Shown: in pieces, positions 5,832 through 21,626 of the stretch
Layout of the letters: the number at the start of each line of letters is the position of its first letter
Numbering within the stretch: the first letter of the stretch is position 1
Assembly (NCBI GenBank): GCA_016280895.1
Contig: JAEEHM010000080.1
Coordinates: 1,297 to 65,296 of the forward strand
Reading direction: 5' to 3'
DNA length: 64,000 nucleotides
DNA from: Bacillota bacterium
GTDB taxonomy: Bacteria > Bacillota_I > Bacilli_A > ML615J-28 > CAG-698
The notes under the pieces: model-generated
Seen by the model: only the letters and a program-made list of their open reading frames with translations
Database searches by the model: none
Told to the model about the DNA's origin: nothing
Translations under genes and position numbers: made by a program

Positions 5832-5994
5832 AATATACCTCTTTTATATTATAACATATTTATGATGTAATTGTATATTTATATTAAAAAAATATAATAA
5901 TTCCAAAAAATATAAAAGAATTTGAGAAAATATCTCAAATTCCTTTACTTTTTTATTAAGATGTGATAAAATTATGGCATAAAAGGTGGATATT

Positions 5995-7203
5995 ATGTTA
6001 TTACAATTTAAATTTAAGAATTTTAAGTCATTTAAAGAAGAAACAATACTAAATATGGAAGCTACATCAATTAAAGATCATAATAATTCTTTAATTGAAA
6101 TTAATAATATCAAAACATTACCTGTTGCTGGTATATATGGTGCTAACGCAAGTGGTAAATCTAATCTATTTGAAGCATTTAATTTTATGCAAATATATTT
6201 ATCAGCTAAAGCAAATGATTTTATTAAGTCAAAAATAGGCTTTATTTTTGATGATAATACATATAAAGAAGCAACAGAATTTGAAGTATGTTTATACTTA
6301 AAAGAATTAGATAAAGAAATAAGATATGGTTTTTCTGTCTATGACAACGAATTCTTGGAAGAGTGGTTATATACTAAAGCTTTTTCTAAAACACCAAATA
6401 TTAAAGAAAAGTGTGTTTTTTATCGAAATGCTGATAACAAAATTGAAAGTGATATTAAAGATTATAATATTAAAAAAGAAATTGAATTTGTAGCTTCAGT
6501 TACTACTTCAAATGAACTTATGCTTACAAATATTGGTAAAAGAAATATAATAGAATATAGTGAGATATATTATTATTTATTAATGGATTCCAAATTTATT
6601 AATTATTCTTATATCATTGATGAAAATATATATAGAAATCAATTATTATTAAAGTTCTTATATGAACATAAAAACAACATTAATATCTTAAGTAATGCTT
6701 TAAATAAAATTGATAATGCGATAAAAAGAATTGAAATTAAGAAAAAAAATAATGAAAATTTAGAAATATATTATTATGTAGATTCTATCCATTTAAATTC
6801 AAATAATGAAGAAGTTGCATTTCCATTTGAAAAAGAATCTTGTGGAACAAAAAAATATTTTGGTTTAATCCTTTATATTATTGATGCTATGGAAACAGGT
6901 AAGCCTATTTTTGTGGATGAATTAGATTCTAAATTACATCCATTATTACTTCGTTATATTGTTAGACAATTTCATGATAAGAATGTTAATAAAAATGGTG
7001 GACAATTGATATTTAGTGCTCACAATATAATTTGTTTGAACAGTAAAGATCTAAGAAGAGATGAAATTTGGTTTGTGGAAAAGAAGAATCAAGCATCTGA
7101 ATTGTATTCTTTATATGATTTTAGAGATAGTGGAGCAAGAAATGATCTTGAATTTGGAAAGAATTATTTAAGTGGAAGATTTGGTGCTATACCATTTGAA
7201 TGA
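5995..7203 (+). CDS. AAA15/AAA21-type ATPase, AbiLi/RloA-like
   Basis: RBS aaaggtgg plus ATG at 5995, preferred over the GTG at 5986. N-terminus MLLQFKFKNFKSF, Walker A GANASGKSN, Walker B/D-loop FVDELDSKLHP, IFSAHN. Confidence 0.8.
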   Translation: MLLQFKFKNFKSFKEETILNMEATSIKDHNNSLIEINNIKTLPVAGIYGANASGKSNLFEAFNFMQIYLSAKANDFIKSKIGFIFDDNTYKEATEFEVCLYLKELDKEIRYGFSVYDNEFLEEWLYTKAFSKTPNIKEKCVFYRNADNKIESDIKDYNIKKEIEFVASVTTSNELMLTNIGKRNIIEYSEIYYYLLMDSKFINYSYIIDENIYRNQLLLKFLYEHKNNINILSNALNKIDNAIKRIEIKKKNNENLEIYYYVDSIHLNSNNEEVAFPFEKESCGTKKYFGLILYIIDAMETGKPIFVDELDSKLHPLLLRYIVRQFHDKNVNKNGGQLIFSAHNIICLNSKDLRRDEIWFVEKKNQASELYSLYDFRDSGARNDLEFGKNYLSGRFGAIPFE

Positions 7204-7211
7204 GGTGAATA

Positions 7212-7847
7212 ATGTCAAGAAGAGATGAGGGAAGAAAAGAAAGAATATCAAAAAATATCAGTCCAAAAGGCGAAGAGTGGTATTTCTATTCTGAAGGAAA
7301 AGAAACAGAACCTAATTATTTAAAATCTTTATTTGAAAATGTTGATAAAGATAAAGAATCAATTAATCCAATTATTGAAGGATTAGGTATGGTTAGCTTA
7401 TCTTTAGTAAATGATGTAATAGAGAAAGACAATAAAATAGTAAAAGAGCATAAAACATTTGTGTTATTTGATAAGGATGATAATCCTAATGTGAATTTTA
7501 ATTTTGCTATTGATAAAGCTAAACAGAATAATATTATTCCCCTTTGGTCAAATGAATGTTTTGAATTATGGCTATTACTTCATTTTAATTATATAGATTC
7601 TAATATTTCTAGAAATGATTATTATGATAAACTAAAAACTTTGACTAAAAGTAAGACATATAAAAAGAATTTGGAAACTATCTTTGACGAAGTTAATGGA
7701 ATAGACGGTCTTTTAATAGCTTATAAGAATGCGAAAAGGTTATTTAACAATTATAAAGGCAATAGTTATAAGGACATGGCACCATGTACAACTGTATTTG
7801 AATTGATAGATGAGATTAATAAGGTCATTAATGTTTTAAAGAAGTAG
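7212..7847 (+). CDS. RloB-like protein (AbiLii-like partner)
   Basis: Starts 9 nt after the ATPase stop. RloB signatures: YSEGKETEPNYL, LFDKDD, WSNECFELWLLLHF. Confidence 0.8.
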   Translation: MSRRDEGRKERISKNISPKGEEWYFYSEGKETEPNYLKSLFENVDKDKESINPIIEGLGMVSLSLVNDVIEKDNKIVKEHKTFVLFDKDDNPNVNFNFAIDKAKQNNIIPLWSNECFELWLLLHFNYIDSNISRNDYYDKLKTLTKSKTYKKNLETIFDEVNGIDGLLIAYKNAKRLFNNYKGNSYKDMAPCTTVFELIDEINKVINVLKK

Positions 7848-7866
7848 TCTTTAAAAACTTAAATAT

Positions 7867-7887
7867 CGAAACAAAATGTTTCGAAAT
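7867..7887. repeat. 21-bp palindrome-containing repeat cgaaacaaaatgtttcgaaat (copy 1)
   Basis: Identical to 10115-10135. Arms cgaaaca/tgtttcg are inverted repeats, and flanking bases are also partly similar. Confidence 0.9.
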
Positions 7888-7939
7888 TCGAGTTTTTAAG
7901 ACAGCGTCGAAATGTAAATTTTATTATAGAATAAAATAT

Positions 7940-7979
7940 TTGACATTTACGCTAAAATATATTATAATATTTAGCGTAA
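7940..7979 (+). promoter_or_regulatory. abiE promoter with embracing 10-bp inverted-repeat operator
   Basis: ttgaca (7940-7945), 17 nt, tataat (7963-7968). Perfect IR ttacgctaaa (7947-7956) / tttagcgtaa (7970-7979) brackets the -10. Confidence 0.7.
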
Positions 7980-7991
7980 GAGGAAAACGTT

Positions 7992-8579
7992 ATGAAGGAC
8001 AAATTAAATGATTTTGTGAACAAAAACAATGGTTATCTTATTTCTGCTTATGCGAGAGAAGAAGGTTTTTCAAGACAATATATTTCTTATTATGCTAGAA
8101 AAAACAACTTAGAAAGAGTTGCAGAAGGTATTTATATTACAGAAGATACATGGCCAGATTATTTATATATTTCACAATTACGAAATGAAGAAGTTGTGTT
8201 TTCATTTGAAACGGCATTATATCTTCATGGTTTAATGGACAGAGAACCTACTTTTACTAGTGTGTCTGTTAATTATGGTTATAACGCAATGCATTTAAAG
8301 AATAAGGGATTCAAAGTTCATACTTCTATTACAGATATTTATAATATTGGGATTGAGACTGTTGAAACACAATTTGGAAATGTTGTTAAAACATATGACA
8401 TGGAAAGAACAATTTGCGATATTATTAAATATAAAAAATATATGGATATTCAAGTGTTCACTACAGCATTGAAAGAATATGTAAAAAGTGATAATAAACG
8501 TATTCCTGTCTTAATGGATTATGCAAAAAAATTGAAGGTTGAAGATAAAGTTAAAGATTATTTTGAGGTGTTATTGTGA
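7992..8579 (+). CDS. abiEi: Type IV toxin-antitoxin AbiEi-family antitoxin / transcriptional repressor
   Basis: N-terminal wHTH pattern (NNGYLISAYAREEGFSRQYISYYARKNNLERVAEGIY). 4-nt overlap (GTGA) with the downstream AbiEii reading frame. Confidence 0.75.
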   Translation: MKDKLNDFVNKNNGYLISAYAREEGFSRQYISYYARKNNLERVAEGIYITEDTWPDYLYISQLRNEEVVFSFETALYLHGLMDREPTFTSVSVNYGYNAMHLKNKGFKVHTSITDIYNIGIETVETQFGNVVKTYDMERTICDIIKYKKYMDIQVFTTALKEYVKSDNKRIPVLMDYAKKLKVEDKVKDYFEVLL

Positions 8580-9415
8580 TTGTTAGCACTCCACAATTAA
8601 AAGCAAAAATAAGAAAACTATCAGATGGTAATAGTGACAAGTCACAAGCTTTGCTTAGAACATTTTTTATGGAAAGATTTTTGGAAAGGCTATGCAACTC
8701 TGATTATAAAAATAACTTCTATTTAAAAGGAGGCATACTTGTCTCATCATTATTGGGACTTGATGTACGTTCAACAATGGATATTGATACAACAATTTCC
8801 GAATTTAATCTAGATCATGAAACTACTAAACGCGTTATCGAAGAAATAATAAATATTGATATTAATGATGGGGTTACATTTGAAATAATTAAAGAAGCAA
8901 AAATAATGGATGAAGCTGACTATCCTGGCATTCGCTTCACGTTACAAGCAAATTTTGAAAAGATTAAACAAAAAATAAAAATCGATATTTCAACAAGTGA
9001 TATTATTACACCATCAGCAATTGAATATAATTATAAATTAATGTTGTAAGATAAGACTATTCAATTGAGATCTTATAATATTGAAACTTTATTAGCAGAA
9101 AAAATAGAAACAATAATGGCTAGAGGAACAACAAACACAAGAATGCGAGATTTCTATGATATATACCAAATATATATGCAAAGAGAAGATTCTATTTCTT
9201 TTAACTTATTGAAGAAAGCTTTTGAAAATACTAGTAAAAGAAGAAAATCATATAATTTATTTTCAAATATTGAAAATATATTATATGATATTCAACAAAA
9301 CGAAGAGATGATGTTAAATTGGGAAAATTATAAAAATGATTCTTATTATGTTGGTGAATTAAGTTGGAAAGAAGTGAACGAAACAATTCAAATTGTAATT
9401 AAAAAAATGAAATAA
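8576..9415 (+). pseudogene. abiEii: AbiEii/AbiGii-family nucleotidyltransferase toxin interrupted by one in-frame TAA (9047-9049)
   Basis: ORFs 8576-9049 and 9065-9415 are in the same frame (...KLML*DKTIQLRSYNIE...). N-terminal part has FMERFLERL...FYLKGG...STMDIDT. C-terminal part has LLAEKIETIMARGTTNTRMRDFYDIY. Confidence 0.75.
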
Positions 9416-9435
9416 TAATTGAGAAGGAGAAGAAA

Positions 9436-9969
9436 GTGAAGACAATATGTGGATCAAGCTGTTCAATTATTGATATGGCAGGTGATTTTTATGAAGCTTA
9501 TAATAGATGTGTCGAAAATAAAAATGTAAGAAATAATGGATTCGGAACAACAATTGCTGATGTAGTTAATGTTCCTGCAATAGTTAATGGAGCTTTTGCA
9601 ATTGAATTATACTTAAAAAGTATGATAGATCCAAAGAAAATTGAGAACAAGAGAATTCACAATTTAAAAAGGCTTTATTCTTTTTTGAAAAAGGAAGAAA
9701 AGAATGAACTAGAGAAAAGAATATGTGAAGAACTTTTAAAAATGAATTGGCAAATAAATAATGACACATTACAAGCAAATAGAAAATCTAGTACCGAAAA
9801 AGATATATTTGAAATATGCTTGAAAGGTATTAGCGAAGCTTTTGCTTATTGGAGATATATTTTTGAAAAGAAAAACACAGGGTTTGGTTTTCTTAATACA
9901 TTAAATGTGCTCCCAGTATTTTTAAAAAATATAAAAGTTTTTGCAGAAGAAAAAAATGGTAGATTGTAA
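9436..9969 (+). CDS. Hypothetical protein, possibly HEPN-like
   Basis: GTG start with RBS gaaggag. Helical pattern AFAIELYLKS...RIHNLKRLY...AYWRYIFE resembles HEPN-type helices by eye only. Confidence 0.4.
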   Translation: MKTICGSSCSIIDMAGDFYEAYNRCVENKNVRNNGFGTTIADVVNVPAIVNGAFAIELYLKSMIDPKKIENKRIHNLKRLYSFLKKEEKNELEKRICEELLKMNWQINNDTLQANRKSSTEKDIFEICLKGISEAFAYWRYIFEKKNTGFGFLNTLNVLPVFLKNIKVFAEEKNGRL

Positions 9970-10042
9970 ATAAAAATTGATAATAATTGAATAAATGATT
10001 GATTAAAACGAAGAGATATGATAAAATAATATTGATCAATGA

Positions 10043-10099
10043 GTTGGTGTACTGCTGGGTGGTGGCCTTTGGGTTGCAGCAGAGCCAACTTTTCTTTTT
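10043..10099 (+). terminator. GC-rich hairpin plus T-run terminator
   Basis: gttggtgtactgctg ... cagcagagccaac followed by ttttcttttt. Confidence 0.7.
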
Positions 10100-10114
10100 G
10101 TATAAACTCTAAAA

Positions 10115-10135
10115 CGAAACAAAATGTTTCGAAAT
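10115..10135. repeat. 21-bp palindrome-containing repeat cgaaacaaaatgtttcgaaat (copy 2)
   Basis: Identical to 7867-7887. Confidence 0.9.
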
Positions 10136-10223
10136 ATGCGTTTTTTGATATAGTATCTTTTTAAAAATGGTCTGTCAAAAACTATGGTGAAAACTATTTA
10201 ACATTACTTTTAAAAAAATTCGA

Positions 10224-10252
10224 TTGATAAATTGAGTGCTATATGATATAAT
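10224..10252 (+). promoter_or_regulatory. Sigma-A-type promoter of the HTH gene
   Basis: ttgata, 17 nt, tataat. Confidence 0.6.
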
Positions 10253-10292
10253 GATATTGCCCTATAATGTAGGGCGTTCAAGGAGAATACAT

Positions 10293-10595
10293 ATGAGCGA
10301 ATTCATCAACAATTTAAAAAAGCATGCTGTTAGAATAGAAGTACAACTTCCTGAAATCGATAAAGATTTTGTGAAAAGATTGAGAATCAGTTTAAATATG
10401 AGTCAATCATTATTTGCAAGTTATTTAGGAGTTACTAAAAAAGCTATTGAGAAATGGGAACAAGGTGTTAATAAAATAAAGGGAACAGCTAAGGTTTTAT
10501 TGTATCTGATAAATGATGATCCTAATATTCTTTCAAAAATAGCAAAAGTAGAATATAATGGCGAAAAACATGAATATAAGAAGGAGGCTATATAA
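10293..10595 (+). CDS. XRE/YiaG-type HTH protein (antitoxin-like, no toxin partner seen)
   Basis: RBS aaggag plus ATG at 10293; the upstream extension from 10236 covers the promoter. LRISLNMSQSLFASYLGVTKKAIEKWEQGVNKIKGTAKVLL is the YiaG/HigA-like HTH pattern. Confidence 0.7.
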   Translation: MSEFINNLKKHAVRIEVQLPEIDKDFVKRLRISLNMSQSLFASYLGVTKKAIEKWEQGVNKIKGTAKVLLYLINDDPNILSKIAKVEYNGEKHEYKKEAI

Positions 10596-10879: not shown

Positions 10880-10909
10880 TTGACAACAATTACATTTATT
10901 TGATATAAT
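10880..10909 (+). promoter_or_regulatory. Promoter P1 (extended -10) for riboswitch 1
   Basis: ttgaca, 18 nt, tgatataat. Confidence 0.65.
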
Positions 10910-10928
10910 ACTAATGTAAATATAAGTT

Positions 10929-11017
10929 AATAGCAAAACACGGGAAACTGTGTGACGCAAAACTATAGGGTCTGAAATGATAGCCAGTTGCCAAATATAT
11001 TGGAAACTGGTTTTTTT
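10929..11017 (+). promoter_or_regulatory. c-di-GMP-I (GEMM-I) riboswitch 1 with intrinsic terminator
   Basis: agcaaaa, then cacgg-GAAA-ctgtg hairpin, then GACGCAAAACTATAGGG, TCTGAAA, TAGCCAGTTGCC. Terminator stem ccagttgcca / tggaaactgg (1 mismatch) plus T7. A second hairpin, ttttttgtaaca/tgttacaaaaaa, lies at 11012-11036. Confidence 0.8.
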
Positions 11018-11109: not shown

Positions 11110-11142
11110 ATTGTTGTAAATTAAAAATAGTACTACAAGTGC

Positions 11143-11235
11143 TAAAGGCAAAGCAAGAGAAATCTTGTGACGCAAAGCTATAGGGCCTGAAATGGTAGCC
11201 AGTTGTCATTTGATGTTGACAGTTGGCTTTTTTTG
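11143..11235 (+). promoter_or_regulatory. c-di-GMP-I (GEMM-I) riboswitch 2 with intrinsic terminator
   Basis: AAAGGCAAAG, then caaga-GAAA-tcttg, then GACGCAAAGCTATAGGGCCTGAAATGGTAGCCAGTTGTC. Terminator gccagttgtca / tgacagttggc (2 G-U pairs) plus T8. Confidence 0.85.
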
Positions 11236-11277
11236 TTCCTTATAGAATTTAAAAAGCTAGCCAAAGGTTTTTAATGT

Positions 11278-11367
11278 TAAAGGCAAAGCAAGAGAAATCT
11301 TGTGACGCAAAGCTATAGGGCCTGAAAATGGTAGCCAGTTGTCATTGATAGACAACTGGCGTTTTTT
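11278..11367 (+). promoter_or_regulatory. c-di-GMP-I (GEMM-I) riboswitch 3 with intrinsic terminator
   Basis: Near-identical to riboswitch 2 over about 68 nt, with one extra A. Perfect terminator stem gccagttgtc / gacaactggc plus gTTTTTT. Lies 45 nt upstream of the 11413 start. Confidence 0.85.
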
Positions 11368-11412: not shown

Positions 11413-12132
11413 ATGAAATTACTGACAACGAAGTATCTGATTACCAAGAACTTCTTACTTCTTGGAATATTGGTTACAGGTTTGTTATCAGCGATCATCG
11501 GTGTGTTAGCGTTCTTTGGTCAAAACATGGGAACATTCGTTATATCACTTGGTGATGATGCCTTTAGGACAGGTATTATCTTATCAGATAATAAAGAATT
11601 CACAACTTCAAGTCCACGTTTGTTGGTTAACCCAGTTAACAACTCAATGCCTGTATCGTTTGATGATATAGCAATTCAAGAGTGTATGTCAACAGATGGT
11701 GACTTTGAAGATCCAAAAAATCTTACTTATATCGGTTATACCTTCTATCTTATGAATGAAGGAAACACAATTGTAGATGTAGAATTCAATATTGATATTG
11801 TAACTGTTACAAAAAATATTGATGCAGCTGCAAGAGTAATGCTGATACAAGATGATGATGTAGAACATTTATCAATTTATAGAAAAGCGGATTCTAATCC
11901 AATAAATTACTACGATCACACTCCATACGAGTTATCAAAAGACTTTGAATCAAGTAGTAGAGTGTGCACAAACACCTTTGAGTCTTTTAGACCAGGTGAT
12001 GTTAAAAAGTACACTTTATTTATTTGGTTAGAAGGTTGGGATGAAGATTGCAACGACTCAGTAATGGGTGGACAATTAAGAATGAACATGACATTTAACA
12101 TTGTTAAGAGTCTTGTTGAAGATGATGATTAA
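11413..12132 (+). CDS. TasA/camelysin-like secreted or anchored protein with SipW-type signal-peptide-like N-terminus (accessory fibre component?)
   Basis: RBS aaaggaagg. N-terminal TM ending GVLAFFGQNMGTF, compared with the TasA signal ...GGGTWAAFND. C-terminal pattern MGGQLRMNMTFNI resembles the TasA-family terminal strand. Confidence 0.5.
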   Translation: MKLLTTKYLITKNFLLLGILVTGLLSAIIGVLAFFGQNMGTFVISLGDDAFRTGIILSDNKEFTTSSPRLLVNPVNNSMPVSFDDIAIQECMSTDGDFEDPKNLTYIGYTFYLMNEGNTIVDVEFNIDIVTVTKNIDAAARVMLIQDDDVEHLSIYRKADSNPINYYDHTPYELSKDFESSSRVCTNTFESFRPGDVKKYTLFIWLEGWDEDCNDSVMGGQLRMNMTFNIVKSLVEDDD

Positions 12133-12259
12133 AAGTAATTTATTAAATGTGATGAAAAATTAGTTTTTCTGATTCTTATTATGGTAATAACAAAAAGAAC
12201 AAAATAAAAAAAGAAAAGAACAAACAAAAGAAAAGGATTTTAAAAAAAGGAGAAAAATT

Positions 12260-13054
12260 ATGAAAAAATTTACTACAAAATTATTAATGTCTATTATTGC
12301 TGTTGCTTTTGCTTTCGTAGCATTAGGAACTTCTACTTATGCATGGTTCTCAATGAACACTGAAGTTACAGTTACTGGTATGCAAGTTGTTGCAAAATCA
12401 GATAACACTTATTTATTAATTGGTGATGGTGAAAATAACACTGCTGCTAAAATTCAAGGATTAGAAACTGCTGTTACAGTTGATCTTGCAATTTCTGATG
12501 ATGATTCTAAAGTATATCCAAGTGCACCAAAAACTGCTGACGACATTGGAGAAGGCAAAAAATTTGCTGATGGCACAGCTGTAACTGATGCTACATCTGC
12601 TGCTGCTTTTGCTAACTGGTATACTGCAAATGCTGAAAAATCAAGTGAAGCTACAATGAAAGCTGGAACTGCTAAATCATTAACAAAATTTGATGGTTAT
12701 GTATTAGTAAAGACTGTATATTTAACTGTAGCTAAAGGTGCTAACCCTGCTAAAGCTTTAACTGCAACTGCTACTTTTGCTCAAAAAGGTGAAGGAAATG
12801 ATTTATCTGCTGCAAGAGTTCTTGTTACAACTGATTTAGGCGCTGGAGGAATGGCAGTTTTATCATCAACAAATGCTTCAAATGTTGCAATCGCACCTGC
12901 TGATGCTGAAATCACTGAAAATACACTTGTAACTGTAAATCTTTACATTTACGTTGACGGAAATGACAGCAAAATTTTCACTAACAATACAGCTAATTTA
13001 AAAGGTGCTACTATTTCATTAGCATTTAATGTTAGTTCAGTACCTGCTGCTTAA
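12260..13054 (+). CDS. TasA/camelysin-family protein with SipW-cognate signal peptide (putative major fibre subunit)
   Basis: RBS aaaggag. MKKFTTKLLMSIIAVAFAFVALGTSTYAWFSMN matches the SipW-dependent signal class (G-T-x-A-x-F-[NST]). Ala/Thr-rich and Cys-free. C-terminal LKGATISLAFNV. Followed by a hairpin. Confidence 0.65.
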   Translation: MKKFTTKLLMSIIAVAFAFVALGTSTYAWFSMNTEVTVTGMQVVAKSDNTYLLIGDGENNTAAKIQGLETAVTVDLAISDDDSKVYPSAPKTADDIGEGKKFADGTAVTDATSAAAFANWYTANAEKSSEATMKAGTAKSLTKFDGYVLVKTVYLTVAKGANPAKALTATATFAQKGEGNDLSAARVLVTTDLGAGGMAVLSSTNASNVAIAPADAEITENTLVTVNLYIYVDGNDSKIFTNNTANLKGATISLAFNVSSVPAA

Positions 13055-13087
13055 TAAAGCAACAAATATTTAACGATATTTAATTTT

Positions 13088-13120
13088 ACGCCTAGGCGAA
13101 AACCTAGGCGTATATTTATA
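13088..13120 (+). terminator. Hairpin (attenuator or terminator) after the putative major subunit gene
   Basis: acgcctagg-cgaaaa-cctaggcgt followed by a weak T-tract. An extended -10 (tggtaatat, 13187-13195) follows. Confidence 0.55.
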
Positions 13121-13236
13121 TAAAACATTAATATGTGAAAATATAACAATTATTTTTCATAAAATATAGATTTTTTGTTAAAAATGTGGTAATATATGTT
13201 ATATAACTATGCTTATAAGATATATGAGGTGAATAT

Positions 13237-14127
13237 ATGGAAAATACTAAACAAATGAACCCAAAAGTAAAGAAAATATTAAGTATTGTATTTAATGTTT
13301 TATTTTATGCTTTCTTAGTATTGTTATTTGCATTTTCAATCAGTAATATTAGAAGTAGAAAAAATAATATTCCAAACATCTTTGGTGTTGGATATTTGCA
13401 AGTCCAATCAGGATCAATGACCGGCACTTTCGAAAAAGGAGATTTTATTTGGGTTAAAATTGCAAACGATAAAAAAATAGATAAACTTGAGATTGGAGAT
13501 ATAATTACTTTCTATGATCCTGCGATTTCTGAATCTATCGTGAATGCTGGTGGTGAAGATGATGGAACATCATTGAATACCCATAGAATCGTTGATATTA
13601 AAGAGATGGATGATGGATCATTACGATATATTTGCCAAGGTGATTATGTAAAAATTTCATTTCCAGCCAATGTTTATGATTCATCAAAATCAAGTAATAC
13701 TATGATTCAAATAGTTACAAAGGATAATATTCGTGCTATCTACACAAGCAATATGGGTAAAGGCATGACTGGCATCTTAAAGTTTGCTAAGTCAAGTTTA
13801 GGATTTGGATTATGTATTGTACTTCCAACTGCATTATTATTAGTTTATGAAGTTGTAATGTTAATTAGAAACATTATGAAGTTAAATAAAGAGAAGTTAG
13901 AAGCTCAAATGGCTGAAACACAAGCTGCTCAACAAGAAGATTTAGAAGCTCAAAAACAAAGAATGAGAGAAGAATTACTTGCTGAATTAAGAGCAGAACA
14001 AGCTAAATCAAATGAAGCTCAAGAAGCACAAGTAGAAAATGTTCAAGAAGAAAAAACATCTGAAGATGTTCCTGAAGAACAACCTGTTGAAGAAGAAAAA
14101 GTAGAAGAAAATAAAGAAGAAAATTAA
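13237..14127 (+). CDS. sipW: SipW-type (S26B, archaeal/ER-type) signal peptidase I with C-terminal TM and charged coiled-coil/acidic tail
   Basis: N-terminal TM. Catalytic Ser box QSGSMTGTF, His box NTHRIVDI, CQGDY. Second TM LGFGLCIVLPTALLLVYEVVMLI, then about 85 aa of E/Q/K-rich tail ending ...KTSEDVPEEQPVEEEKVEENKEEN. Confidence 0.75.
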   Translation: MENTKQMNPKVKKILSIVFNVLFYAFLVLLFAFSISNIRSRKNNIPNIFGVGYLQVQSGSMTGTFEKGDFIWVKIANDKKIDKLEIGDIITFYDPAISESIVNAGGEDDGTSLNTHRIVDIKEMDDGSLRYICQGDYVKISFPANVYDSSKSSNTMIQIVTKDNIRAIYTSNMGKGMTGILKFAKSSLGFGLCIVLPTALLLVYEVVMLIRNIMKLNKEKLEAQMAETQAAQQEDLEAQKQRMREELLAELRAEQAKSNEAQEAQVENVQEEKTSEDVPEEQPVEEEKVEENKEEN

Positions 14128-14147
14128 TTTAGTAACGAGGTGAAAGG

Positions 14148-15713
14148 ATGACAGAGTTCGCAAGATATTACGTAACTTTCTTAAGGGAATTATTCTCTAA
14201 TATATGGGATTTCATTAAGACATTATTTGGTGCCTTTGCGAATCTTCTATATTATGACATTAAAGACTATTTTAATATATTAGTTAATGCAAGTAATGGA
14301 TTTAACATCCTTGACTGGATTGTATTTGTATTTGTATTAATTATTAATGTTTCATTTATTGCTTTAATTGTAATAAGAATTGCTCAAGCAATAAGACGTC
14401 ATCATAAAAATAGAAAGAAAGATGCTGAAAAAGCAGAATTGTTAGAAGAAATAGCTGGACTAAATTATAAAGTTGAAGAATTAATTAATGAAAAAAATCA
14501 ATTGTTTGCTATGAAAGTTTCATCATTAGGTTTGCGTGCTAATGGTACTGTACCAGTTGAAGGTGGAGGATCATCAACTGAAAGAGGTGGTAAACCTGGT
14601 GAAGATAAGAAACTAAAAGCTGGTGAATCAAGATTCGTTAAATTAATCAATGTAGATAAAGACTACAATAAAGTTGCTATCATCACAAACATGGGTGAAG
14701 CTGATATGGTTAACTTGCCAGAATTAGTAGATAGATTTGTAAACTTCAGTGCTAGCCAATTGAAATTATTCTATGAAAAGAAATTAATTGCTATTTGGTT
14801 TGCTGGACTTGCAACATCTAAGATTTTAATTCTTGAAGGTATATCTGGTACTGGTAAAACATCACTACCATATGCTATGGGTAAGTTCTTCCAAAACGAT
14901 GCTGCTATCGTTTCAGTACAACCATCTTGGAGAGATAGAGCTGAAATCATTGGTTATTTAAATGAATTCACTAAGAGATTTAATGAAACAGATTTCTTAA
15001 AAGCATTATATGCTACTACATATCGTGATGATATTAATATCATCATCCTCGATGAAATGAACTTAGCACGTATTGAGTATTATTTTGCTGAATTCTTATC
15101 AATCATGGAAATGCCAGATGTCAATGAATGGAAGATTGATATCGTTCCTGATTCATTAAGTACAGACCCAGTTAATATTGTAAATGGTAAATTATTAGTA
15201 CCACAAAATGTTTGGTTCATTGGTACAGCCAATAAGGATGATTCAACATTCACAATTACTGATAAGGTATATGACCGTGCTACTGTTTTAGAGATGAACT
15301 CAAAAGCTAAATATATTGATGCAGCATTTACACCAGCTATCAATATGACTTATGAATACTTAGATAATCTATTCAAGAAAGCTTTGGAAGAACATCCATT
15401 ATCTTCTAAATCACTTGATAACTTAGCTAAGGTTGATAAGTTCATTGCTGCTAATTTCAAGATTACATTTGGTAACCGTATTCTTAAACAAATCAAGATA
15501 TTCGTACCTGTATTTGTAGCTTGTGGATTTAGTGAAACAGAAGCTATTGATTATTTCTTAGCTTATAAGATTATTAGAAAATTTGAAAGTTTAAATCTAT
15601 CATTCTTACATAATGAATTAAACGAATTGATATCTGTATTAGATAAGATATACGGCAAGGGTGCATGTGAAGAATGTATTTCTTGTATTAAAGACTTTAT
15701 TAAGAATTCATAG
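14148..15713 (+). CDS. Membrane-anchored McrB-family (AAA+ GTPase) protein
   Basis: TM ILDWIVFVFVLIINVSFIALIVI, a short coiled coil and a Gly-rich linker. Walker A EGISGTGKTS, Walker B IIILDEMNLARIEYYFAEFLS. FIGTANKDDS aligns with McrB IGLMNTADRS, giving the NxxD motif NKDD. Confidence 0.7.
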   Translation: MTEFARYYVTFLRELFSNIWDFIKTLFGAFANLLYYDIKDYFNILVNASNGFNILDWIVFVFVLIINVSFIALIVIRIAQAIRRHHKNRKKDAEKAELLEEIAGLNYKVEELINEKNQLFAMKVSSLGLRANGTVPVEGGGSSTERGGKPGEDKKLKAGESRFVKLINVDKDYNKVAIITNMGEADMVNLPELVDRFVNFSASQLKLFYEKKLIAIWFAGLATSKILILEGISGTGKTSLPYAMGKFFQNDAAIVSVQPSWRDRAEIIGYLNEFTKRFNETDFLKALYATTYRDDINIIILDEMNLARIEYYFAEFLSIMEMPDVNEWKIDIVPDSLSTDPVNIVNGKLLVPQNVWFIGTANKDDSTFTITDKVYDRATVLEMNSKAKYIDAAFTPAINMTYEYLDNLFKKALEEHPLSSKSLDNLAKVDKFIAANFKITFGNRILKQIKIFVPVFVACGFSETEAIDYFLAYKIIRKFESLNLSFLHNELNELISVLDKIYGKGACEECISCIKDFIKNS

Positions 15714-15738
15714 ATTTCTATGAATTCTTTTATTTTTT
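15702..15738 (+). terminator. Perfect 11-bp hairpin plus T-run overlapping the stop of the McrB-like gene (intra-operon attenuator?)
   Basis: aagaattcata-gatttc-tatgaattctt followed by ttattttttgg. Only 27 nt remain before the next start, so there is no room for a promoter. Confidence 0.6.
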
Positions 15739-15764
15739 GGTAAAGTAAAGAAAGGAGAAAAGGC

Positions 15765-18587
15765 ATGAAAAAGGATCAATTAGCAAACAAACAAAAGATC
15801 AATGATGATGTAACGAAATATTCTCAAAAATTAGATTATGCTTTATTTAATCTAAATAATGAAGACTTCTATAAATATTTTGAAAATGCCTTTTTGAATG
15901 GTGATAGAACACTTTATCAAAAAAACATTTCCGAAGCAAAAACATTTGATGATACATGGATTAAAACAGTTGAATCTTATTTTCCTAGTATAGATAAAAT
16001 CACTAGAGAACCTAAATCAATTTTAAGATATGATGAAGATATTGTTGCAGTAGAAAGAGCTAAAAAGACAAGTGCTAAATCAGTTAGACATTTAGCTAGT
16101 CATACTGAGAATATCAGAGATATTGATGAGAATAATTATGTTACTCCAAAGAAGGTTTTAATTGAAATACCTGAACAAGAATATGCTATTTATGAAAATA
16201 GATTTATTAAAACATTAATTAATCGTTTATATTTGTTTGTGAAGAATAGATATGAAATCATTAAGAATAATGTTGAATCTTTCCAAAAAGATCGATTATC
16301 AGGTACTGCTAATTTTGATTTTAATGATACTAAGGTTGAATTAAGTGTTGATTTAACTATCACTAAGGACTTAGATGATAAGAAGATCAATGAACATAAT
16401 TATGATTTGTTGGCTAGAACTGAGAAATTAAATTATTTGATTACTGGTTTAAAGAATTCACAATTCATGAAGATGTTGAAGAATGCACCTGCTGTGCATC
16501 CTCCTATCATGAAAACAAATATCATCATGAAGAATCCAGAATTTAGAAATGCGTATAACTTATGGATCTTCTTAGATAAATATTCTATTTTAGGTTATGA
16601 TGTAACTATTAGAGAAAAAGATCTTGAATTTGATGATGGATTCATTGATGATATCAATCATATGTTTGCAACTAACTATGCAATTATATTAGGTAATCAA
16701 TTAAATAGATTAGAAAAATATAATGTTCCTGATGGATATCAAGAATTAATAAAGAAGAAAACTAAGATCGTTAGTCAAAATCCTAAAGATTTTGTACCTA
16801 ATCCAGATTTAATTGAAATGGAAGAAAGTCATTTAAATGAATTCTTCTTACAAAAATATAAAGAATTATTGGATTCTGGTATTAATAAGGAAACTAAGAA
16901 TGAATTCTTAGATGAACCTAATGATGCGATTATTAAACGTAATGTTCGTCAAACTACTGATATTGTGAATGCATTGTATGATGCTAAATTTGAAATATCA
17001 GAAGAGGCTGATATCTTACATAGACTAGAAGATACTGACTTAGAAAAAGAATATCAAAGATCTCTTGAACAATTACGTTATGCTAAAATTATTAGAGAGG
17101 TTAAAGAAGTCGATTACAACAATTTCTTTAGAACTGAAAGAAGATTACTTCGTGCTCTTTCTAAAACTAATACTGAGATGATTAAGAAATTAATCGAAGA
17201 AAGAAAGTATGAAGAAAAAGAAAGAAAGATTAAAGAAATTGAAGCAAAGATAGATGCATTAAAGAAAGAGAATGAAGAAAGAAGCAAACAAATAGATGCT
17301 TTAAACGATCATCAAACTTTAATGAAAGAAGAGAAACAAAGACTTATTGATGAGAGAAATAAGACTATCAATAAGGTTGATGAAGAGATGAAGAAGTACG
17401 ATCAAATGATGGAAGCTAAGTACGAAGAAGAAAGACAAAAAGTACTTGCTCAATTACAAGCTGAAAAAGAACGTGCTAAAGAACTTAAGGCTTTAGAAGA
17501 TGAGGCTAAGAAATATCGTAAGCAAGCTCTAAACGATATGATTGCGGAAGAACGTGCTAAAGCTCAAGAAGAAATGGAAGCTAAGTTCAAACTTCATCGT
17601 GAAGAAATGGAAGCTGCACTTAATGATATTAGAGATATCGCTATTAGATATCAAGAAAAGATTCAAAGTGAAGTTGAAAGAAGAGAATTAGAGAACAGTC
17701 AAAAAGAAAAAGAAGCTATTGCAATCTTTAAAGTTAGCAAATATGAAGAAGCTTTGGAACAAAAGAACAAAATTGAACTTGAAAGTGCTGAGGCTGCTTA
17801 TAATAAGGCTCTTGCTGAAAAGCAAGCTAAGATTGATGCTAAGACTGAACTTGATAATAAATTGAAGGAATTAGATGATGAATATCAAAACAGATTATCA
17901 TCTAAATTACAAGATTTAGAAGCTGAATATAATGAAGCTATGGCTCAAGTAATTGAGAAACCAGAAATCTTAGAAGAACAAGAAGTTGAAGATCAAACAT
18001 CTGACGATGTTCTAGATGATGCTGAAATTCAAGAAAAGGTAGCTTCTGATTTAGCAAGACTTCAAAGTATTGAAGAAGAAGAGAGAAAGCAAGAAGAAGA
18101 AAGATTAAAAGCTGAAGCAATAGAGGTTGAAAAACTAGAAGCATTAAAAGAAGCTGAAGCTGCTAGACTTCAAGAAGAAGCATTTGAAGCAAAGAGACAA
18201 GAAATTGAAGCTGAATTAAATAATTCTTATGATAATTCATTAGAAGAAGAAAAGCAAAAACAAATCAATTTAAATGCTATCCAAAGAGAAAAAGAAGCAA
18301 AAGCTATTTCTTTAGTTCAATCTTATGAAAAAGGTAAGAAGGATGAAGAAGCTTTAGCTTTAAAAGAAGAGGAAGAAAAAGCTCTTGCTGAACAAAAGCG
18401 TTTAGATGCTTTAAAATTTGAAGAAGATCAAAAGCGAATTGAAGCACAAATTGAAGAGCAAGCAAGACTTGAAGAAAAGAAGCAACAAATCAAATTAAAT
18501 GCAATTCAAAGAGAAAAAGAAAATAAAGCAATCTCTCTAGTTCAAGAATATGAGAATAAAAGAGATGCAAAATCTATTGAAAGATAA
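15765..18587 (+). CDS. McrC N-terminal-domain-like (DUF2357-like) protein fused to a ~600-aa E/K/A-rich coiled coil; no nuclease motif recognised
   Basis: RBS aaaggag. YAIYENRFIKTLINRLYLFV resembles the McrC/DUF2357 ..ENR.iK..L.. segment. Residues from about 340 to 940 are heptad-like E/K/A/L. Contains the internal repeat Q(I)xLNAIQREKExKAISLVQxYE. Confidence 0.45.
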   Translation: MKKDQLANKQKINDDVTKYSQKLDYALFNLNNEDFYKYFENAFLNGDRTLYQKNISEAKTFDDTWIKTVESYFPSIDKITREPKSILRYDEDIVAVERAKKTSAKSVRHLASHTENIRDIDENNYVTPKKVLIEIPEQEYAIYENRFIKTLINRLYLFVKNRYEIIKNNVESFQKDRLSGTANFDFNDTKVELSVDLTITKDLDDKKINEHNYDLLARTEKLNYLITGLKNSQFMKMLKNAPAVHPPIMKTNIIMKNPEFRNAYNLWIFLDKYSILGYDVTIREKDLEFDDGFIDDINHMFATNYAIILGNQLNRLEKYNVPDGYQELIKKKTKIVSQNPKDFVPNPDLIEMEESHLNEFFLQKYKELLDSGINKETKNEFLDEPNDAIIKRNVRQTTDIVNALYDAKFEISEEADILHRLEDTDLEKEYQRSLEQLRYAKIIREVKEVDYNNFFRTERRLLRALSKTNTEMIKKLIEERKYEEKERKIKEIEAKIDALKKENEERSKQIDALNDHQTLMKEEKQRLIDERNKTINKVDEEMKKYDQMMEAKYEEERQKVLAQLQAEKERAKELKALEDEAKKYRKQALNDMIAEERAKAQEEMEAKFKLHREEMEAALNDIRDIAIRYQEKIQSEVERRELENSQKEKEAIAIFKVSKYEEALEQKNKIELESAEAAYNKALAEKQAKIDAKTELDNKLKELDDEYQNRLSSKLQDLEAEYNEAMAQVIEKPEILEEQEVEDQTSDDVLDDAEIQEKVASDLARLQSIEEEERKQEEERLKAEAIEVEKLEALKEAEAARLQEEAFEAKRQEIEAELNNSYDNSLEEEKQKQINLNAIQREKEAKAISLVQSYEKGKKDEEALALKEEEEKALAEQKRLDALKFEEDQKRIEAQIEEQARLEEKKQQIKLNAIQREKENKAISLVQEYENKRDAKSIER

Positions 18588-18605
18588 TGCATAATTTGTA
18601 TGAAT

Positions 18606-18640
18606 AAGCAACTTGTGTATTTATCAAGTTGCTTATTTTA
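18606..18640 (+). terminator. Hairpin plus short T-tract between the coiled-coil gene and sipW2
   Basis: aagcaacttg-tgtatttat-caagttgctt then atttta. Confidence 0.55.
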
Positions 18641-18659
18641 ATTAAAAAAGGAGGTAATT

Positions 18660-19340
18660 ATGGAAAATGTCAAAAAAGATAATTCGAAAATATCAAAAAG
18701 AATTATAACTATTTTTGCATGGGTAATTACTGCCTTACTTAGTTTAATGGTTATATTGCTGTTGGTATTTGGTCTTAGTTCAATCAAACAAGGAAAGATG
18801 GTAAAAATATTTGGTTATTCATATTCTGTTATTGTATCAGAATCTATGGTACCAACAATCAATGTCAGTGATATTATTATCATCAACACTAAATATGAAT
18901 TTGAAGATGTTAAAAAAGATGATATTATCGTATTTTATAATCCAAATGAACAAAAGAATATTGCTCATAGAGTTGTAGATATTTTAGAAGATGGTAGCCT
19001 ACAAACATGTGGTGATAACAATAATGGTCTTGTTGATGGATTCCATGTTACTGAAGAATATTATATTGGTAAAGTAACAAAATACGGACATTTCTTAGGT
19101 CTTGGTTCATTAATGATGAACGGACGTGTTGTTTTCTTTATTGCACTTGCTGCGATATTCATGTATATTATTGTTACAGAAGCAATCAATATTTATAAGA
19201 TGAGCATGAAGAAGAAACACGAAGATAAGATGAAAGAAATTGAAGATAATAAGAAAAAACAAGAAGATGAATTACGTGCTCAATTAAAAGCAGAATTATT
19301 GAAAGAACTTGAAAATGAGAAAAACAAACTTTCCAATTAG
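18660..19340 (+). CDS. sipW: Second SipW-type signal peptidase I with C-terminal TM and K/E-rich tail
   Basis: RBS aaaggagg. VSESMVPTI (Ser box), IAHRVVDI (His box), TCGDNNNG. TM VVFFIALAAIFMYIIVTEAI, then a charged tail. Confidence 0.8.
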   Translation: MENVKKDNSKISKRIITIFAWVITALLSLMVILLLVFGLSSIKQGKMVKIFGYSYSVIVSESMVPTINVSDIIIINTKYEFEDVKKDDIIVFYNPNEQKNIAHRVVDILEDGSLQTCGDNNNGLVDGFHVTEEYYIGKVTKYGHFLGLGSLMMNGRVVFFIALAAIFMYIIVTEAINIYKMSMKKKHEDKMKEIEDNKKKQEDELRAQLKAELLKELENEKNKLSN

Positions 19341-19950: not shown

Positions 19951-20026
19951 AGTGTATAAAATATACACTTTTTGTTGACATATTACGTCAGAAAGGAGTA
20001 TAATAAAAGTGTATAAAATATACAGT
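19951..20026 (+). promoter_or_regulatory. Promoter sandwiched by two copies of a 19-bp palindromic operator
   Basis: agtgtataaaatatacact (19951-19969, perfect palindrome); ttgaca (19975-19980), 18 nt, tataat (19999-20004); agtgtataaaatatacagt (20008-20026). Confidence 0.65.
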
Positions 20027-20038
20027 AAGGAGACGTTT

Positions 20039-21190
20039 ATGTTAGAGAAAATTATTATCAATAATATCAATTCTATTAAAAATGCCGAAATAGACTTTAA
20101 AAAAGGAAGTTACAAATTTGGCGAAGACAATATTGTTGAAAACATTGTAAATCCTATGGCCTTATATGGTCATAATGGTAGTGGTAAAACTTCTGTATTT
20201 CTTGCATTGGATAGTTTAATAAAGATTATGAATCAAGCAAGTGTAGAATTGCGCCCTTTTGTTGTTAATTATTTTCTTTATAATAAATATCAACAGGCGA
20301 AAGAGAATGAAAGAAACGAAGACGATATCAGTGGTTCTATTACTTTAAGCTTTTCTTTAAATAATGATAATTATGAATATTTTATTTCTACATCAATGTT
20401 AGCTTATATTAGAAAGGAATATTTAAAATTTAATTCTAAGATTATTTTTGAAAGAAATAAGGAAGGAAGCACTTATAATGGTAAATATGTGTCATTTGAT
20501 GGTAATTATAATCTTGTGCCTATGCTTAGAAGTTTGGCATCGTCAGAGATCAACAATCAAATAATACAGGATGCATATTCATACATTAGCTCTTTTACTT
20601 TCTTGAGCCTTCCACAAATTAATAAGGGATACTTTGTTACTTCAAAGGTGTTCAATAATATCGGTTATGCTGATTTGTTAGTAAAAAAAGCAGAGGAAAT
20701 TGAAAACATTTTAAAGACATATAAGGAATTCCCTGTCTTTAAAGTAAAGAAGAAAAGTGAATTAGTTGGTATCAATGCGCCTATATCTCAATTTGTGTTT
20801 GAAATACAGGATGGTTCCTTCAAAGGAGAATTACCATTTTCTTTATTATCTGCTGGTATGAGAAATCAAGCAATTCTATTATCAATTCTTGTATCCATCC
20901 CTGAAAATAGTGTGGTATTTGTAGACGAATTAGAACAAGCATTGCATCCAAGTGCAATAAAATCTTTTTTAGAAGTTGTAAAAAAGAAAAAAATTCAATT
21001 AGTTTTCTCTTCACATAATACATATATCCTACAAATGTTAAGACCTGACCAAGTATATTTTACTCATTGGCATGAAGGTTTTTCAAAGTGTTCACGCTTA
21101 TCTAAGATATATCCTAATATTCGTGAAATCAATAACATAGAAAAAATGTACTTGTCATCAGTATTTGATGAGGCCATAAAGAATGGATAA
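20039..21190 (+). CDS. Stand-alone AAA15/AAA21-type ATPase (defence-associated family; partner gene absent)
   Basis: RBS aaggag plus ATG at 20039; the listed GTG at 20009 lies inside the operator. Walker A GHNGSGKTS, VFVDELEQALHP, FSSHNTYIL. Confidence 0.7.
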   Translation: MLEKIIINNINSIKNAEIDFKKGSYKFGEDNIVENIVNPMALYGHNGSGKTSVFLALDSLIKIMNQASVELRPFVVNYFLYNKYQQAKENERNEDDISGSITLSFSLNNDNYEYFISTSMLAYIRKEYLKFNSKIIFERNKEGSTYNGKYVSFDGNYNLVPMLRSLASSEINNQIIQDAYSYISSFTFLSLPQINKGYFVTSKVFNNIGYADLLVKKAEEIENILKTYKEFPVFKVKKKSELVGINAPISQFVFEIQDGSFKGELPFSLLSAGMRNQAILLSILVSIPENSVVFVDELEQALHPSAIKSFLEVVKKKKIQLVFSSHNTYILQMLRPDQVYFTHWHEGFSKCSRLSKIYPNIREINNIEKMYLSSVFDEAIKNG

Positions 21191-21356
21191 TTTTTTATTA
21201 TAATTAGTAAAAATAAAAGCCATTTTAATAAATATAATAATAGGCCCTTAATATTGGATATTTTCTCTATATAATTACTACAATAAATGTATTAATAATG
21301 TGTTGACAACATTAACACAATAATATATAATATATTTATAGAGGAGATAAAGAAAA

Positions 21357-21626
21357 ATGGCAAATGTAAATGTTAGAATTAATAATGATATTAAAGCTAA
21401 TGCTGAAAATGTATTTAAGAGATTAGGTATTACTCCTACAACTGCTATTACCTTGTTTTATAATCAAGTGATTAGAACTAATAGCATTCCATTCGAATTA
21501 AAAGCAGATGTACCTAATGATACTACAAAGAAAGCTATTAGCGAATTGGATGATATGAAAAAGAATCCAGATAAATATAAATCATATAAAAATGTTGATG
21601 AATTAATGGAGGCCTTAAACAATTGA
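21357..21626 (+). CDS. RelB/DinJ-family type II antitoxin (orphan)
   Basis: MANVNVRINNDIKANAENVFKRLGITPTTAITLFYNQVIRTNSIPFEL is the DinJ/RelB RHH pattern. Downstream, only a 13-codon TTG ORF overlaps the stop (TTGA). Confidence 0.75.
   Translation: MANVNVRINNDIKANAENVFKRLGITPTTAITLFYNQVIRTNSIPFELKADVPNDTTKKAISELDDMKKNPDKYKSYKNVDELMEALNN

Follow-up and report, generated by a model that had tools for sequence, protein, structure and literature searches.

A nuclease-less McrB/McrC-like pair, very probably of the CoCoPALM type, within a TasA-type fibre operon of a Bacillota bacterium

We analysed a 64,000-nucleotide stretch of a Bacillota bacterium genome (assembly GCA_016280895.1, contig JAEEHM010000080.1, positions 1,297 to 65,296; hereafter the window, whose own positions are used for all numbering) and in it two neighbouring plus-strand genes, which encode a McrB-like GTPase of 521 amino acids (aa) with a transmembrane (TM) helix and a McrC-like protein of 940 aa. 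We are highly confident that the two genes constitute a CoCoPALM-type locus inside a TasA-type fibre operon. CoCoPALM was introduced by Bell et al. 2024 (eLife, PMC11090510) as the combination of a McrB with TM helix and coiled coil, a coiled-coil McrC and linkage to signal peptidases, the GTPase carrying in fusion an FtsB-like domain made of TM and coiled-coil helices; two sentences were given to it there and the analysis was deferred to a later publication. A literature search found no later paper on CoCoPALM and no paper on PDC-M26, the PADLOC system whose component A matches the GTPase. The locus is an example of a named, uncharacterised kind and not a new kind. Judged by analogy with McrBC, the pair most likely acts in the cytoplasm as a platform or anchor that is gated by GTP and serves the assembly of fibres, and not in phage defence.

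The locus has most of the parts that the CoCoPALM description names. Its GTPase belongs to the NxD branch and carries a TM helix and a coiled coil, its McrC homologue has coiled coils of its own, signal peptidase genes are adjacent and no nuclease accompanies them, and we found no difference in kind between this locus and CoCoPALM. Where the description has an FtsB-like part, the window protein has the TM helix at residues 56-78 and the heptad L98/L105/L112; a Pfam scan of residues 1-170 gave no match to FtsB/DivIC, also when hits were admitted up to E = 1. A first-pass annotation of the same DNA, made from the sequence alone, had presented the TM anchor, the apparent lack of a nuclease and the matrix-operon context as distinctive, and these are already stated features of CoCoPALM (Bell et al. 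2024, PMC11090510). Worked out here beyond the published text are the TasA fold of the pilin, the cyclic di-GMP (c-di-GMP) riboswitches, the cassette fixed across a whole lineage and the charged tails of the SipW-type signal peptidases.

Both open reading frames (ORFs) are present exactly as the first-pass annotation gave them (Table 1), and so are the AAA+ motifs it had picked out in the shorter protein. Walker A (GISGTGKTS, residues 231-239), Walker B (ILDEMN, 300-305) and the sensor motif FIGTANKDDS (357-366) were invariant in 16/16 homologues of the GTPase. Among PDB sequences, E. coli McrB was the sole match, a weak one (E 0.003-0.007, phmmer with the single sequence and a search with the 16-sequence profile), and the alignment spanned Walker A to the sensor motif. 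When the GTPase family was compared by hhalign with E. coli K-12 McrB (taken from NC_000913), the Walker A-to-sensor region was aligned over 161 columns with 95% probability and E 3.6e-8. The PADLOC candidate model PDC-M26A matched at 1.5e-37, and the matches to Pfam AAA_5 and NCBIfam McrB lay below the respective cut-offs. These comparisons uphold the earlier placement in the McrB family, and by its sequence the 521-aa protein is a McrB-family GTPase of the NxD branch.

That branch, a major one among McrB GTPases, is defined by an N-x-D signature, usually followed by E or a second D (Bell et al. 2024, PMC11090510). An exhaustive search of 1.84 billion representatives gave 8171 relatives of the GTPase at E<=0.001 and 738 at E<=1e-30. 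In the best 150 of these relatives the sensor motif read G-T-A-N-x-D-[D/E], with a nearly invariant Asp at +2 and a variable position +3 (D, E, sometimes Q, A or G). The first-pass annotation had recognised the NxxD signature in the NKDD of the window. The letters do fit: the spacing from the Asn to the next conserved Asp is the same as in E. coli McrB, and the window sequence alone is compatible with NxxD. The motif conserved in the family, in contrast, is NxD(D/E) and not the classical NxxD. By this comparison of sequences NKDD is an NxD(D/E) variant, and its fit to NxxD is owed to the accident of a second Asp.

Hydropathy analysis revealed a single strong hydrophobic segment in the GTPase, at residues 56-78 (Kyte-Doolittle 19-residue mean 3.24), with a RIAQAIRRHHKNRKK cluster directly C-terminal of it. 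Because of this flank and the positive-inside rule, the first 55 residues are predicted to lie outside and the remainder in the cytoplasm, i.e. with the N-terminus outside and the C-terminus cytoplasmic. A short coiled coil follows, in which L98, L105 and L112 stand at 7-residue spacing and were invariant in the 16 homologues; the coiled-coil periodicity on these 50 residues was non-significant taken alone (z = 1.1; z-scores here and below were computed against shuffled sequences). About residues 140-160 form a Gly-rich linker. The membrane anchoring, the one TM helix, the short coiled coil and the Gly-rich linker described at first pass were all recovered.

The gene of the McrC-like partner begins 51 nucleotides (nt) past the GTPase gene. 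When its N-terminal 440 aa were scanned alone, they matched Pfam DUF2357 (PF09823), which Bell et al. 2024 (PMC11090510) treated as the N-terminal domain of McrC, with E 1.7e-8 and 34.4 bits (cut-off 23.3 bits). The domain was also matched by 23/45 homologues, at best with 6.9e-13. The full-length 940-aa protein matched nothing in Pfam, NCBIfam or PADLOC, and DUF2357 appeared only when the charged tail was removed. The matched region includes a YENRF motif (residues 143-147), of which Y143, E144, N145 and R146 were invariant in the 45 homologues. In the AlphaFold2 (AF2) model, which covers residues 1-440 with a mean predicted local distance difference test (pLDDT) score of 81.5, long beta-hairpins are seen (e.g. 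173-186 and 189-202) and the chain is all-helical after residue 286. No TM segment was found in the protein by hydropathy. The McrC/DUF2357-type N-domain that had been proposed is in good agreement with the Pfam result.

No nuclease family matched the 940-aa protein, its 45 homologues or residues 441-940 scanned alone, and none is encoded within the cassette 11413-19340 according to Pfam and NCBIfam scans. A nuclease hidden in the partner was rejected, as the family scans were empty, residues 286-440 are helical in the model and the tail is a charged low-complexity helix. In residues 441-940, E/K/R/D/Q/A make up 56-78% and each stretch of 50 residues contains 0-1 Pro or Gly; the hydrophobic periodicity of this tail peaks at 3.50 residues (z = 3.3), and E to K/R pairs at i+4 are enriched. 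This period together with the enriched pairs points to a coiled coil that may in places give way to single alpha-helix. Orthologues range from 504 to 940 aa and differ in the length of the charged tail, and the lack of conservation at their C-termini speaks against a globular domain concealed in the tail. Both the apparent lack of a nuclease and the E/K/A-rich heptads of the first-pass annotation hold.

The genes around the pair combine TasA-fold subunits, SipW-type signal peptides and SipW peptidase, which together characterise fibre operons of the TasA superfamily. Foldseek of the AF2 model of the 264-aa pilin (mean pLDDT 85) against the PDB placed the TasA fibre 8aur at rank 1 (E 1.1e-3, probability 0.99), the Sulfolobus acidocaldarius thread 7pnb at rank 2 (E 2e-3) and the Pyrobaculum calidifontis bundling pilus 7ueg at rank 7 (E 1.7e-2), with low template modelling scores (TM-scores, 0.26-0.42). 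Sequence models fail to detect the family: 25 TasA-like proteins gave marginal matches only in Pfam and NCBIfam (Peptidase_M73 0.045 and TIGR04088 0.95, one member each), and the family profile had no match among PDB sequences. The fold assignment of the pilin therefore rests on AF2 and Foldseek, and the model places the protein in the TasA fold class only. Pilin signal peptides are long and hydrophobic and carry an FAWF motif. The first gene of the operon, F5, encodes a paralogue that hhalign aligned with the TasA-like family over 182 columns (97.9% probability, E 4.6e-13) and that occupies the first cassette position in 50 loci; from its sequence it is a candidate for a membrane-anchored base subunit.

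In both SipW copies two TM helices lead into a cytoplasmic tail about 50 aa long, 55% of whose residues are charged (for the upstream copy, the median tail after the last TM helix was 51.5 aa with 55% E/K/R/D/Q). The Ser/His/Asp residues were kept in about 70 loci each, namely S60, H116 and D136 in 72/72 loci for the upstream copy and S62 and H103 in 69/69 loci for the downstream copy, in which D119 and D126 are conserved as well. Judged by these residues, both peptidases are catalytically intact.

A scan of 185,579 species-representative genomes yielded 467 loci. The best 80 of them, inspected by title, came nearly all from Acholeplasma, Paracholeplasma, Mariniplasma, Peloplasma, Anaeroplasmataceae and metagenome-assembled genomes (MAGs) of unclassified Bacilli or Tenericutes; a few MAG titles among these 80 name other groups, e.g. 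Bacteroidales and Omnitrophota. For comparison of the cassette, ORFs were called and clustered in the window and 83 loci (84 sequences in total). The order was nearly invariant: two GGDEF-EAL genes, F5, one to five TasA-like genes, SipW, the McrB-like gene, the McrC-like gene and again SipW. This core is often followed by small proteins with FAWF signals (F6, F8, F7), of which F6 is also a TasA-family paralogue by hhalign, and then by a giant protein (about 2000 aa). Genes of the SipW family were present in 84/84 sequences and the McrC-like gene in 72/84, the remainder being mostly cut-off contigs. The complete genomes of A. laidlawii and A. hippikon showed the same cassette order. This nearly invariant cassette in Acholeplasmatales-type genomes is new here, and the matrix-operon context seen at first pass is confirmed by it and by the TasA-fold pilins and SipW.

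Mean column identity was highest in the operon for the GTPase (70%), followed by the McrC-like protein (48%), F5 (38%) and the pilins (25%). Since hpf, secA and prfB lie downstream of the operon, the window is chromosomal. Sequenced phage and plasmid collections contained GTPase-domain relatives only and no full-length copy of the GTPase, and an origin of the window from phage or plasmid was rejected on these two grounds. The operon is chromosomal and probably vertically inherited.

Three c-di-GMP-I riboswitch aptamers, all well above the Rfam gathering score of 35 bits for RF01051, are arrayed just downstream of a consensus promoter and just upstream of F5. Each aptamer is followed by a hairpin and a T-run, and the 5' arm of the hairpin overlaps the 3' strand of the aptamer. 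Because of this overlap they look like ON switches, in which the ligand prevents termination, and the sequence suggests that high c-di-GMP turns the operon on. The same riboswitch was found upstream of F5 in 6/6 related loci tested, A. laidlawii among them, and in 3 of those 6 a second copy stands ahead of F8, i.e. of the minor-pilin genes. As the riboswitch heads the operon in the window and in all six relatives, the GTPase/McrC-like pair would be co-regulated with the pilins by c-di-GMP. In relatives the GGDEF-EAL genes lie directly upstream of the cassette (synteny in 34 loci), which fits such control. Natural triple-tandem c-di-GMP riboswitches have already been described; on c-di-GMP riboswitches of Acholeplasma the literature search found nothing.

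Table 1. Features of the fibre operon and of the McrB/McrC-like pair in the window
Feature	Position	Strand	Evidence
Two GGDEF-EAL proteins, 520 and 619 aa	301..3737	+	Pfam
Sigma-70-like promoter: TTGACA, 18-nt spacer, TATAAT, with TG	10880..10909	+	12/12 consensus matches, pattern match only
c-di-GMP-I riboswitch aptamer 1, followed by CCAGTT...AACTGG hairpin and T-run	10922..10995	+	RF01051, 63.4 bits
c-di-GMP-I riboswitch aptamer 2, with terminator-like hairpin 11197-11228 (12 pairs) and TTTTTTT	11137..11210	+	61.4 bits
c-di-GMP-I riboswitch aptamer 3, with terminator-like hairpin 11334-11360 (10 pairs, 6 GC) and T-run	11272..11346	+	63.8 bits
F5, first operon gene, 239 aa, predicted TasA-family paralogue with N-terminal membrane anchor, no AWF cleavage motif	11413..12132	+	hhalign, synteny
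Predicted TasA-superfamily pilin, 264 aa, SipW-type signal peptide (…GTSTYAWFSM…)	12260..13054	+	AF2 and Foldseek
SipW-type signal peptidase, upstream copy, 296 aa, 2 TM helices and charged cytoplasmic tail	13237..14127	+	NCBIfam SipW 2.3e-16; archaeal-type signal peptidase I 9.6e-13
McrB-like membrane-anchored GTPase, NxD branch, 521 aa	14148..15713	+	McrB similarity, PADLOC PDC-M26A 1.5e-37, conservation, sensor motif
GTPase TM helix, residues 56-78, positive flank C-terminal	14313..14381	+	Hydropathy
GTPase short coiled coil, predicted cytoplasmic, residues 86-135	14403..14552	+	L98, L105, L112 invariant at heptad spacing
GTPase catalytic core: Walker A (231-239), Walker B (300-305), sensor N362-K-D-D365	14838..15242	+	PDB search, conservation, hhalign
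12-pair perfect hairpin across the GTPase stop codon, then T-rich run; possible attenuator	15702..15729	+	Hairpin search
McrC-like partner, nuclease-less, 940 aa	15765..18587	+	Family profile, DUF2357 match, AF2, nuclease scans
DUF2357 (McrC N-terminal domain) match, residues 72-168, YENRF included	15978..16268	+	Pfam E 1.7e-8
Charged helical tail of residues 441-940: coiled coil, single alpha-helix or both	17085..18584	+	Composition, periodicity
EKExxAIxxVxxYE motif copies (residues 648, 842, 917 of the 940-aa protein)	17706-17747, 18288-18329, 18513-18554	+	Motif search
SipW-type signal peptidase, downstream copy, 226 aa, 2 TM helices and charged cytoplasmic tail	18660..19340	+	Peptidase_S26 2.2e-8; archaeal-type signal peptidase I 1.5e-20

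When the locus was set beside other known systems, it shared parts with several of them. Like the window pair, CoCoNuTs (CnuB/CnuC) have GTPases of the NxD branch and coiled coils, and in their DUF2357 partners an active PD-(D/E)xK domain is often missing. Unlike it, CoCoNuTs are soluble and located in defence islands, whereas the window pair is TM-anchored and stands in a fibre-biogenesis context with no nuclease in the operon. CoCoNuTs are always paired with HEPN or another nuclease (Bell et al. 2024, PMC11090510), and since the operon encodes no such defining partner, the locus does not count as a CoCoNuT. With E. coli McrBC (PDB 6hz4, 6ut6, 7vsr) it shares the gene order and the AAA+ GTPase core, which aligns from Walker A to the sensor/arginine region. 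In place of the DNA-binding N-domain of E. coli McrB, however, the window GTPase has a TM helix and a coiled coil, and it has NxD(D/E) instead of NTAD; the partner lacks the PD-(D/E)xK head of E. coli McrC and has no detectable match to it in sequence or fold. Component A of PADLOC PDC-M26 matches the window GTPase, but only the GTPase part of the 724-position model does so (best stretch 312-432). As the 940-aa partner matches no PADLOC model, the PDC-M26 system as defined in PADLOC is absent here.

The operon itself resembles B. subtilis tapA-sipW-tasA, C. perfringens sipW-bsaABC and the operons of archaeal threads and bundling pili, which have a SipW-type peptidase and TasA-fold subunits, often several paralogues per operon. 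None of these matrix or thread operons has been described with a cytoplasmic nucleoside triphosphatase (NTPase), whereas the window operon has one. Assembly of TasA-type fibres is regarded as chaperone-assisted or spontaneous, and the assembly machinery of threads has been stated to be unknown; publications on TasA-type fibres, threads and bundling pili together describe such machinery as either unknown or absent. BsaA oligomers of C. perfringens have been reported to be anchored to the cytoplasmic membrane.

The operon would build a TasA-type surface fibre held together by donor-strand exchange. In the arrangement that we propose, the GTPase would form a hexamer as in McrBC; the DUF2357 domain of the partner would sit in the pore of this ring and stimulate GTP hydrolysis. 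Six TM helices would hold the ring beneath the membrane, where the GTPase with its coiled coil, the partner with its long charged helix and both SipW proteins with their tails of about 50 aa may join into one sub-membrane complex. GTP turnover would then gate or localise the processing and polymerisation of pilins; alternatively or in addition, the ring could secure the fibre base in the membrane, as there may be no wall to which the fibre could be anchored. High c-di-GMP would turn the whole machine on. B. subtilis anchors TasA at the wall via TapA, whereas Acholeplasma has no cell wall, and a fibre anchor beneath the membrane is attractive for Acholeplasma for this reason. Conserved synteny and riboswitch control are what favour a role in fibre biogenesis over one in defence. 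The first-pass annotation had cast the coiled coil as the 'effector' of a McrBC-derived motor; a part as effector of a defence-type motor found no support in our tests, and synteny and riboswitches point to fibre biogenesis.

Several observations speak against the arrangement just described. The check that the first-pass annotation had suggested, Foldseek of the modelled N-domain of the partner, run here against the PDB, gave nothing significant (best E 0.14), and solved McrC was not among the matches; the McrC-like family profile matched coiled-coil proteins only (noise) among PDB sequences, and hhalign against E. coli McrC gave a probability of 0.1%. The relationship of the partner to McrC is accordingly argued from Pfam membership and gene order and adjacency, and the insertion of the plug into the pore is suggested on the same footing. 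The protein contacts, the hexamer and GTP hydrolysis are inferred from McrBC structures and from the predicted topology. TasA, threads and bundling pili are thought to polymerise extracellularly without an NTPase, so that the contribution of a cytoplasmic motor is not evident, and the literature search found no fibre reported in Acholeplasma-type organisms. The argument from the missing wall covers the named Acholeplasma species, and the window organism may lack a wall. A TM-less relative of the GTPase (P0409) is located in a defence island, and the GTPase matches a defence-candidate model of PADLOC. Finally, in the first of two cassettes of Peloplasma aerotolerans (L065) and of Tenericutes bacterium HGW-Tenericutes-2 (L070), minor-pilin genes directly follow the GTPase gene, with no McrC-like gene and no second SipW gene.

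With these points taken into account, we lean towards the pair working in fibre biogenesis in roughly the proposed way. A wider reading is put forward tentatively, as a serious possibility that falls short of a probability: a McrBC motor of the restriction type would have been recruited to drive or anchor, from the cytoplasm, a c-di-GMP-switched TasA-type donor-strand fibre and would have been fixed in Acholeplasmatales and relatives.

Other functions of the pair appear unlikely. One of them is export or quality control, in which the pair clears cleaved SipW-type signal peptides or stalled pre-pilins or couples pilin export to SecA. The tight linkage to two signal peptidases with cytoplasmic tails and the long hydrophobic signal peptides of the pilins would suit it, as would secA 5 kb downstream in the window, but the proximity of secA was not seen in other loci. 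McrB-type rings are plugged by McrC (6hz4, 6ut6) and, to our knowledge, do not thread polypeptides. The data presented here do not separate this reading from the platform model.

Phage defence or abortive infection, by a membrane-anchored system similar to CoCoNuT or PDC-M26, we regard as improbable. The motor would sense invading nucleic acid or phage adsorption at the fibre and act through a non-nuclease effector, e.g. by membrane perturbation or a secretion block. Such a role could explain the PDC-M26A match, the NxD branch shared with CoCoNuTs, the OLD/TOPRIM, PIN and MazE genes beside the TM-less relative P0409 and the frequency of GTPase-domain relatives on plasmids. The window operon is, moreover, flanked by defence genes. 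A block inserted between the GGDEF-EAL genes and the riboswitches (3783-10595) encodes an M48-like peptidase (minus strand), AAA_21 and RloB, AbiEi, a split AbiEii (ORFs 8576-9049 and 9065-9415, corresponding to profile positions 1-120 and 134-229), HEPN (9436-9969) and an HTH/MqsA-like protein; on the other side, an AbiLi-like AAA_21 ATPase (PADLOC AbiLi, 5e-41) and a RelB antitoxin gene (20009-21626) lie between the second SipW gene and hpf/secA/prfB. However, the flanking defence genes, the block with its HEPN gene included, are missing from the 83 related loci, where the cassette directly abuts the GGDEF-EAL genes. Across an order-level lineage the pair keeps its place behind the pilins with a SipW gene on either side, and it stands under a c-di-GMP riboswitch. 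Family scans revealed neither a nuclease nor another toxic domain, PADLOC has no model that matches the McrC-like protein, and the GTPase is strongly conserved and not fast-evolving.

The least probable reading is that of a general membrane or cell-division scaffold of wall-less Bacillota with an FtsB-like TM helix and coiled coil, whose operon position would reflect co-regulation only. A skeleton beneath the membrane could well be built from a long charged helix such as that of the partner, and nearly all members of the lineage have both proteins in highly conserved form. In the loci examined, however, the pair was never found outside the SipW/pilin cassette, a housekeeping division gene would not usually be controlled by a c-di-GMP riboswitch, and the coiled coil of FtsB is located on the non-cytoplasmic side, opposite to that predicted for the GTPase. 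The FtsB homology reported for the N-terminal TM helix and coiled coil (Bell et al. 2024, PMC11090510) speaks for such a scaffold, and the empty Pfam search of residues 1-170 against it.

Four architectures were seen among the GTPase relatives: one TM helix and about 510 aa as in the window, two TM helices and about 490 aa, four to five TM helices and 550-660 aa, and no TM helix with a long N-terminal extension (700-870 aa). The last type had 40-48% identity in the GTPase domain. Relatives with four to five TM helices in place of one (P0407, P0412, P0415-P0422 and others) had about 40% GTPase-domain identity and kept NxDD. The locus of a two-TM relative (L085) contains two GTPase/DUF2357 pairs in tandem and, after them, a gene for a 3176-aa protein, with no signal peptidase within 8 kb. 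A distant relative with one to two TM helices (L092, 34% identity) adjoins a phage holin gene and a DUF859 gene, possibly in a prophage. L065 and L070, mentioned above, each carry two cassettes about 15 kb apart.

Within the partner, the motif EKExxAIxxVxxYE occurs three times in the window protein versus once, near the C-terminus, in the closest relatives L005-L008, and hence part of the extra length (940 versus about 650 aa) would come from internal duplication. At its C-terminus (L001 13052-13882) the A. laidlawii orthologue carries two Rho_N-type (helix-extended-helix) modules (Pfam E 1.5e-7, above cut-off); modules of this type often bind nucleic acid, and the window protein lacks them.

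The hairpin across the GTPase stop codon has stable counterparts with changed sequences at the same spot in the closest sub-lineage (L004, L005, L006, L007, L008, L017, L021). It is missing in most other loci, in which the gap between the GTPase and McrC-like genes is about 13 nt. The hairpin may set the ratio of GTPase to partner. Another terminator-like hairpin (13087-13112, 10 pairs, 6 GC) lies just past the pilin gene, and the first SipW gene starts only after a gap of 183 nt, a pattern that would be expected if pilin is made in excess over the machinery.

PADLOC matches of the PDC-M26A type to the GTPase in these genomes should not be taken for defence systems. If the proposed role is true, the locus would clearly exemplify how a module of the defence type is turned to a cellular task, and its own c-di-GMP switch can be exploited in experiments. 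It would also provide the first NTPase-dependent assembly machine for the TasA-type filament superfamily. The conserved GTPase motor between two signal peptidases and behind pilins is found in the culturable Acholeplasma laidlawii as well, which makes the question testable.

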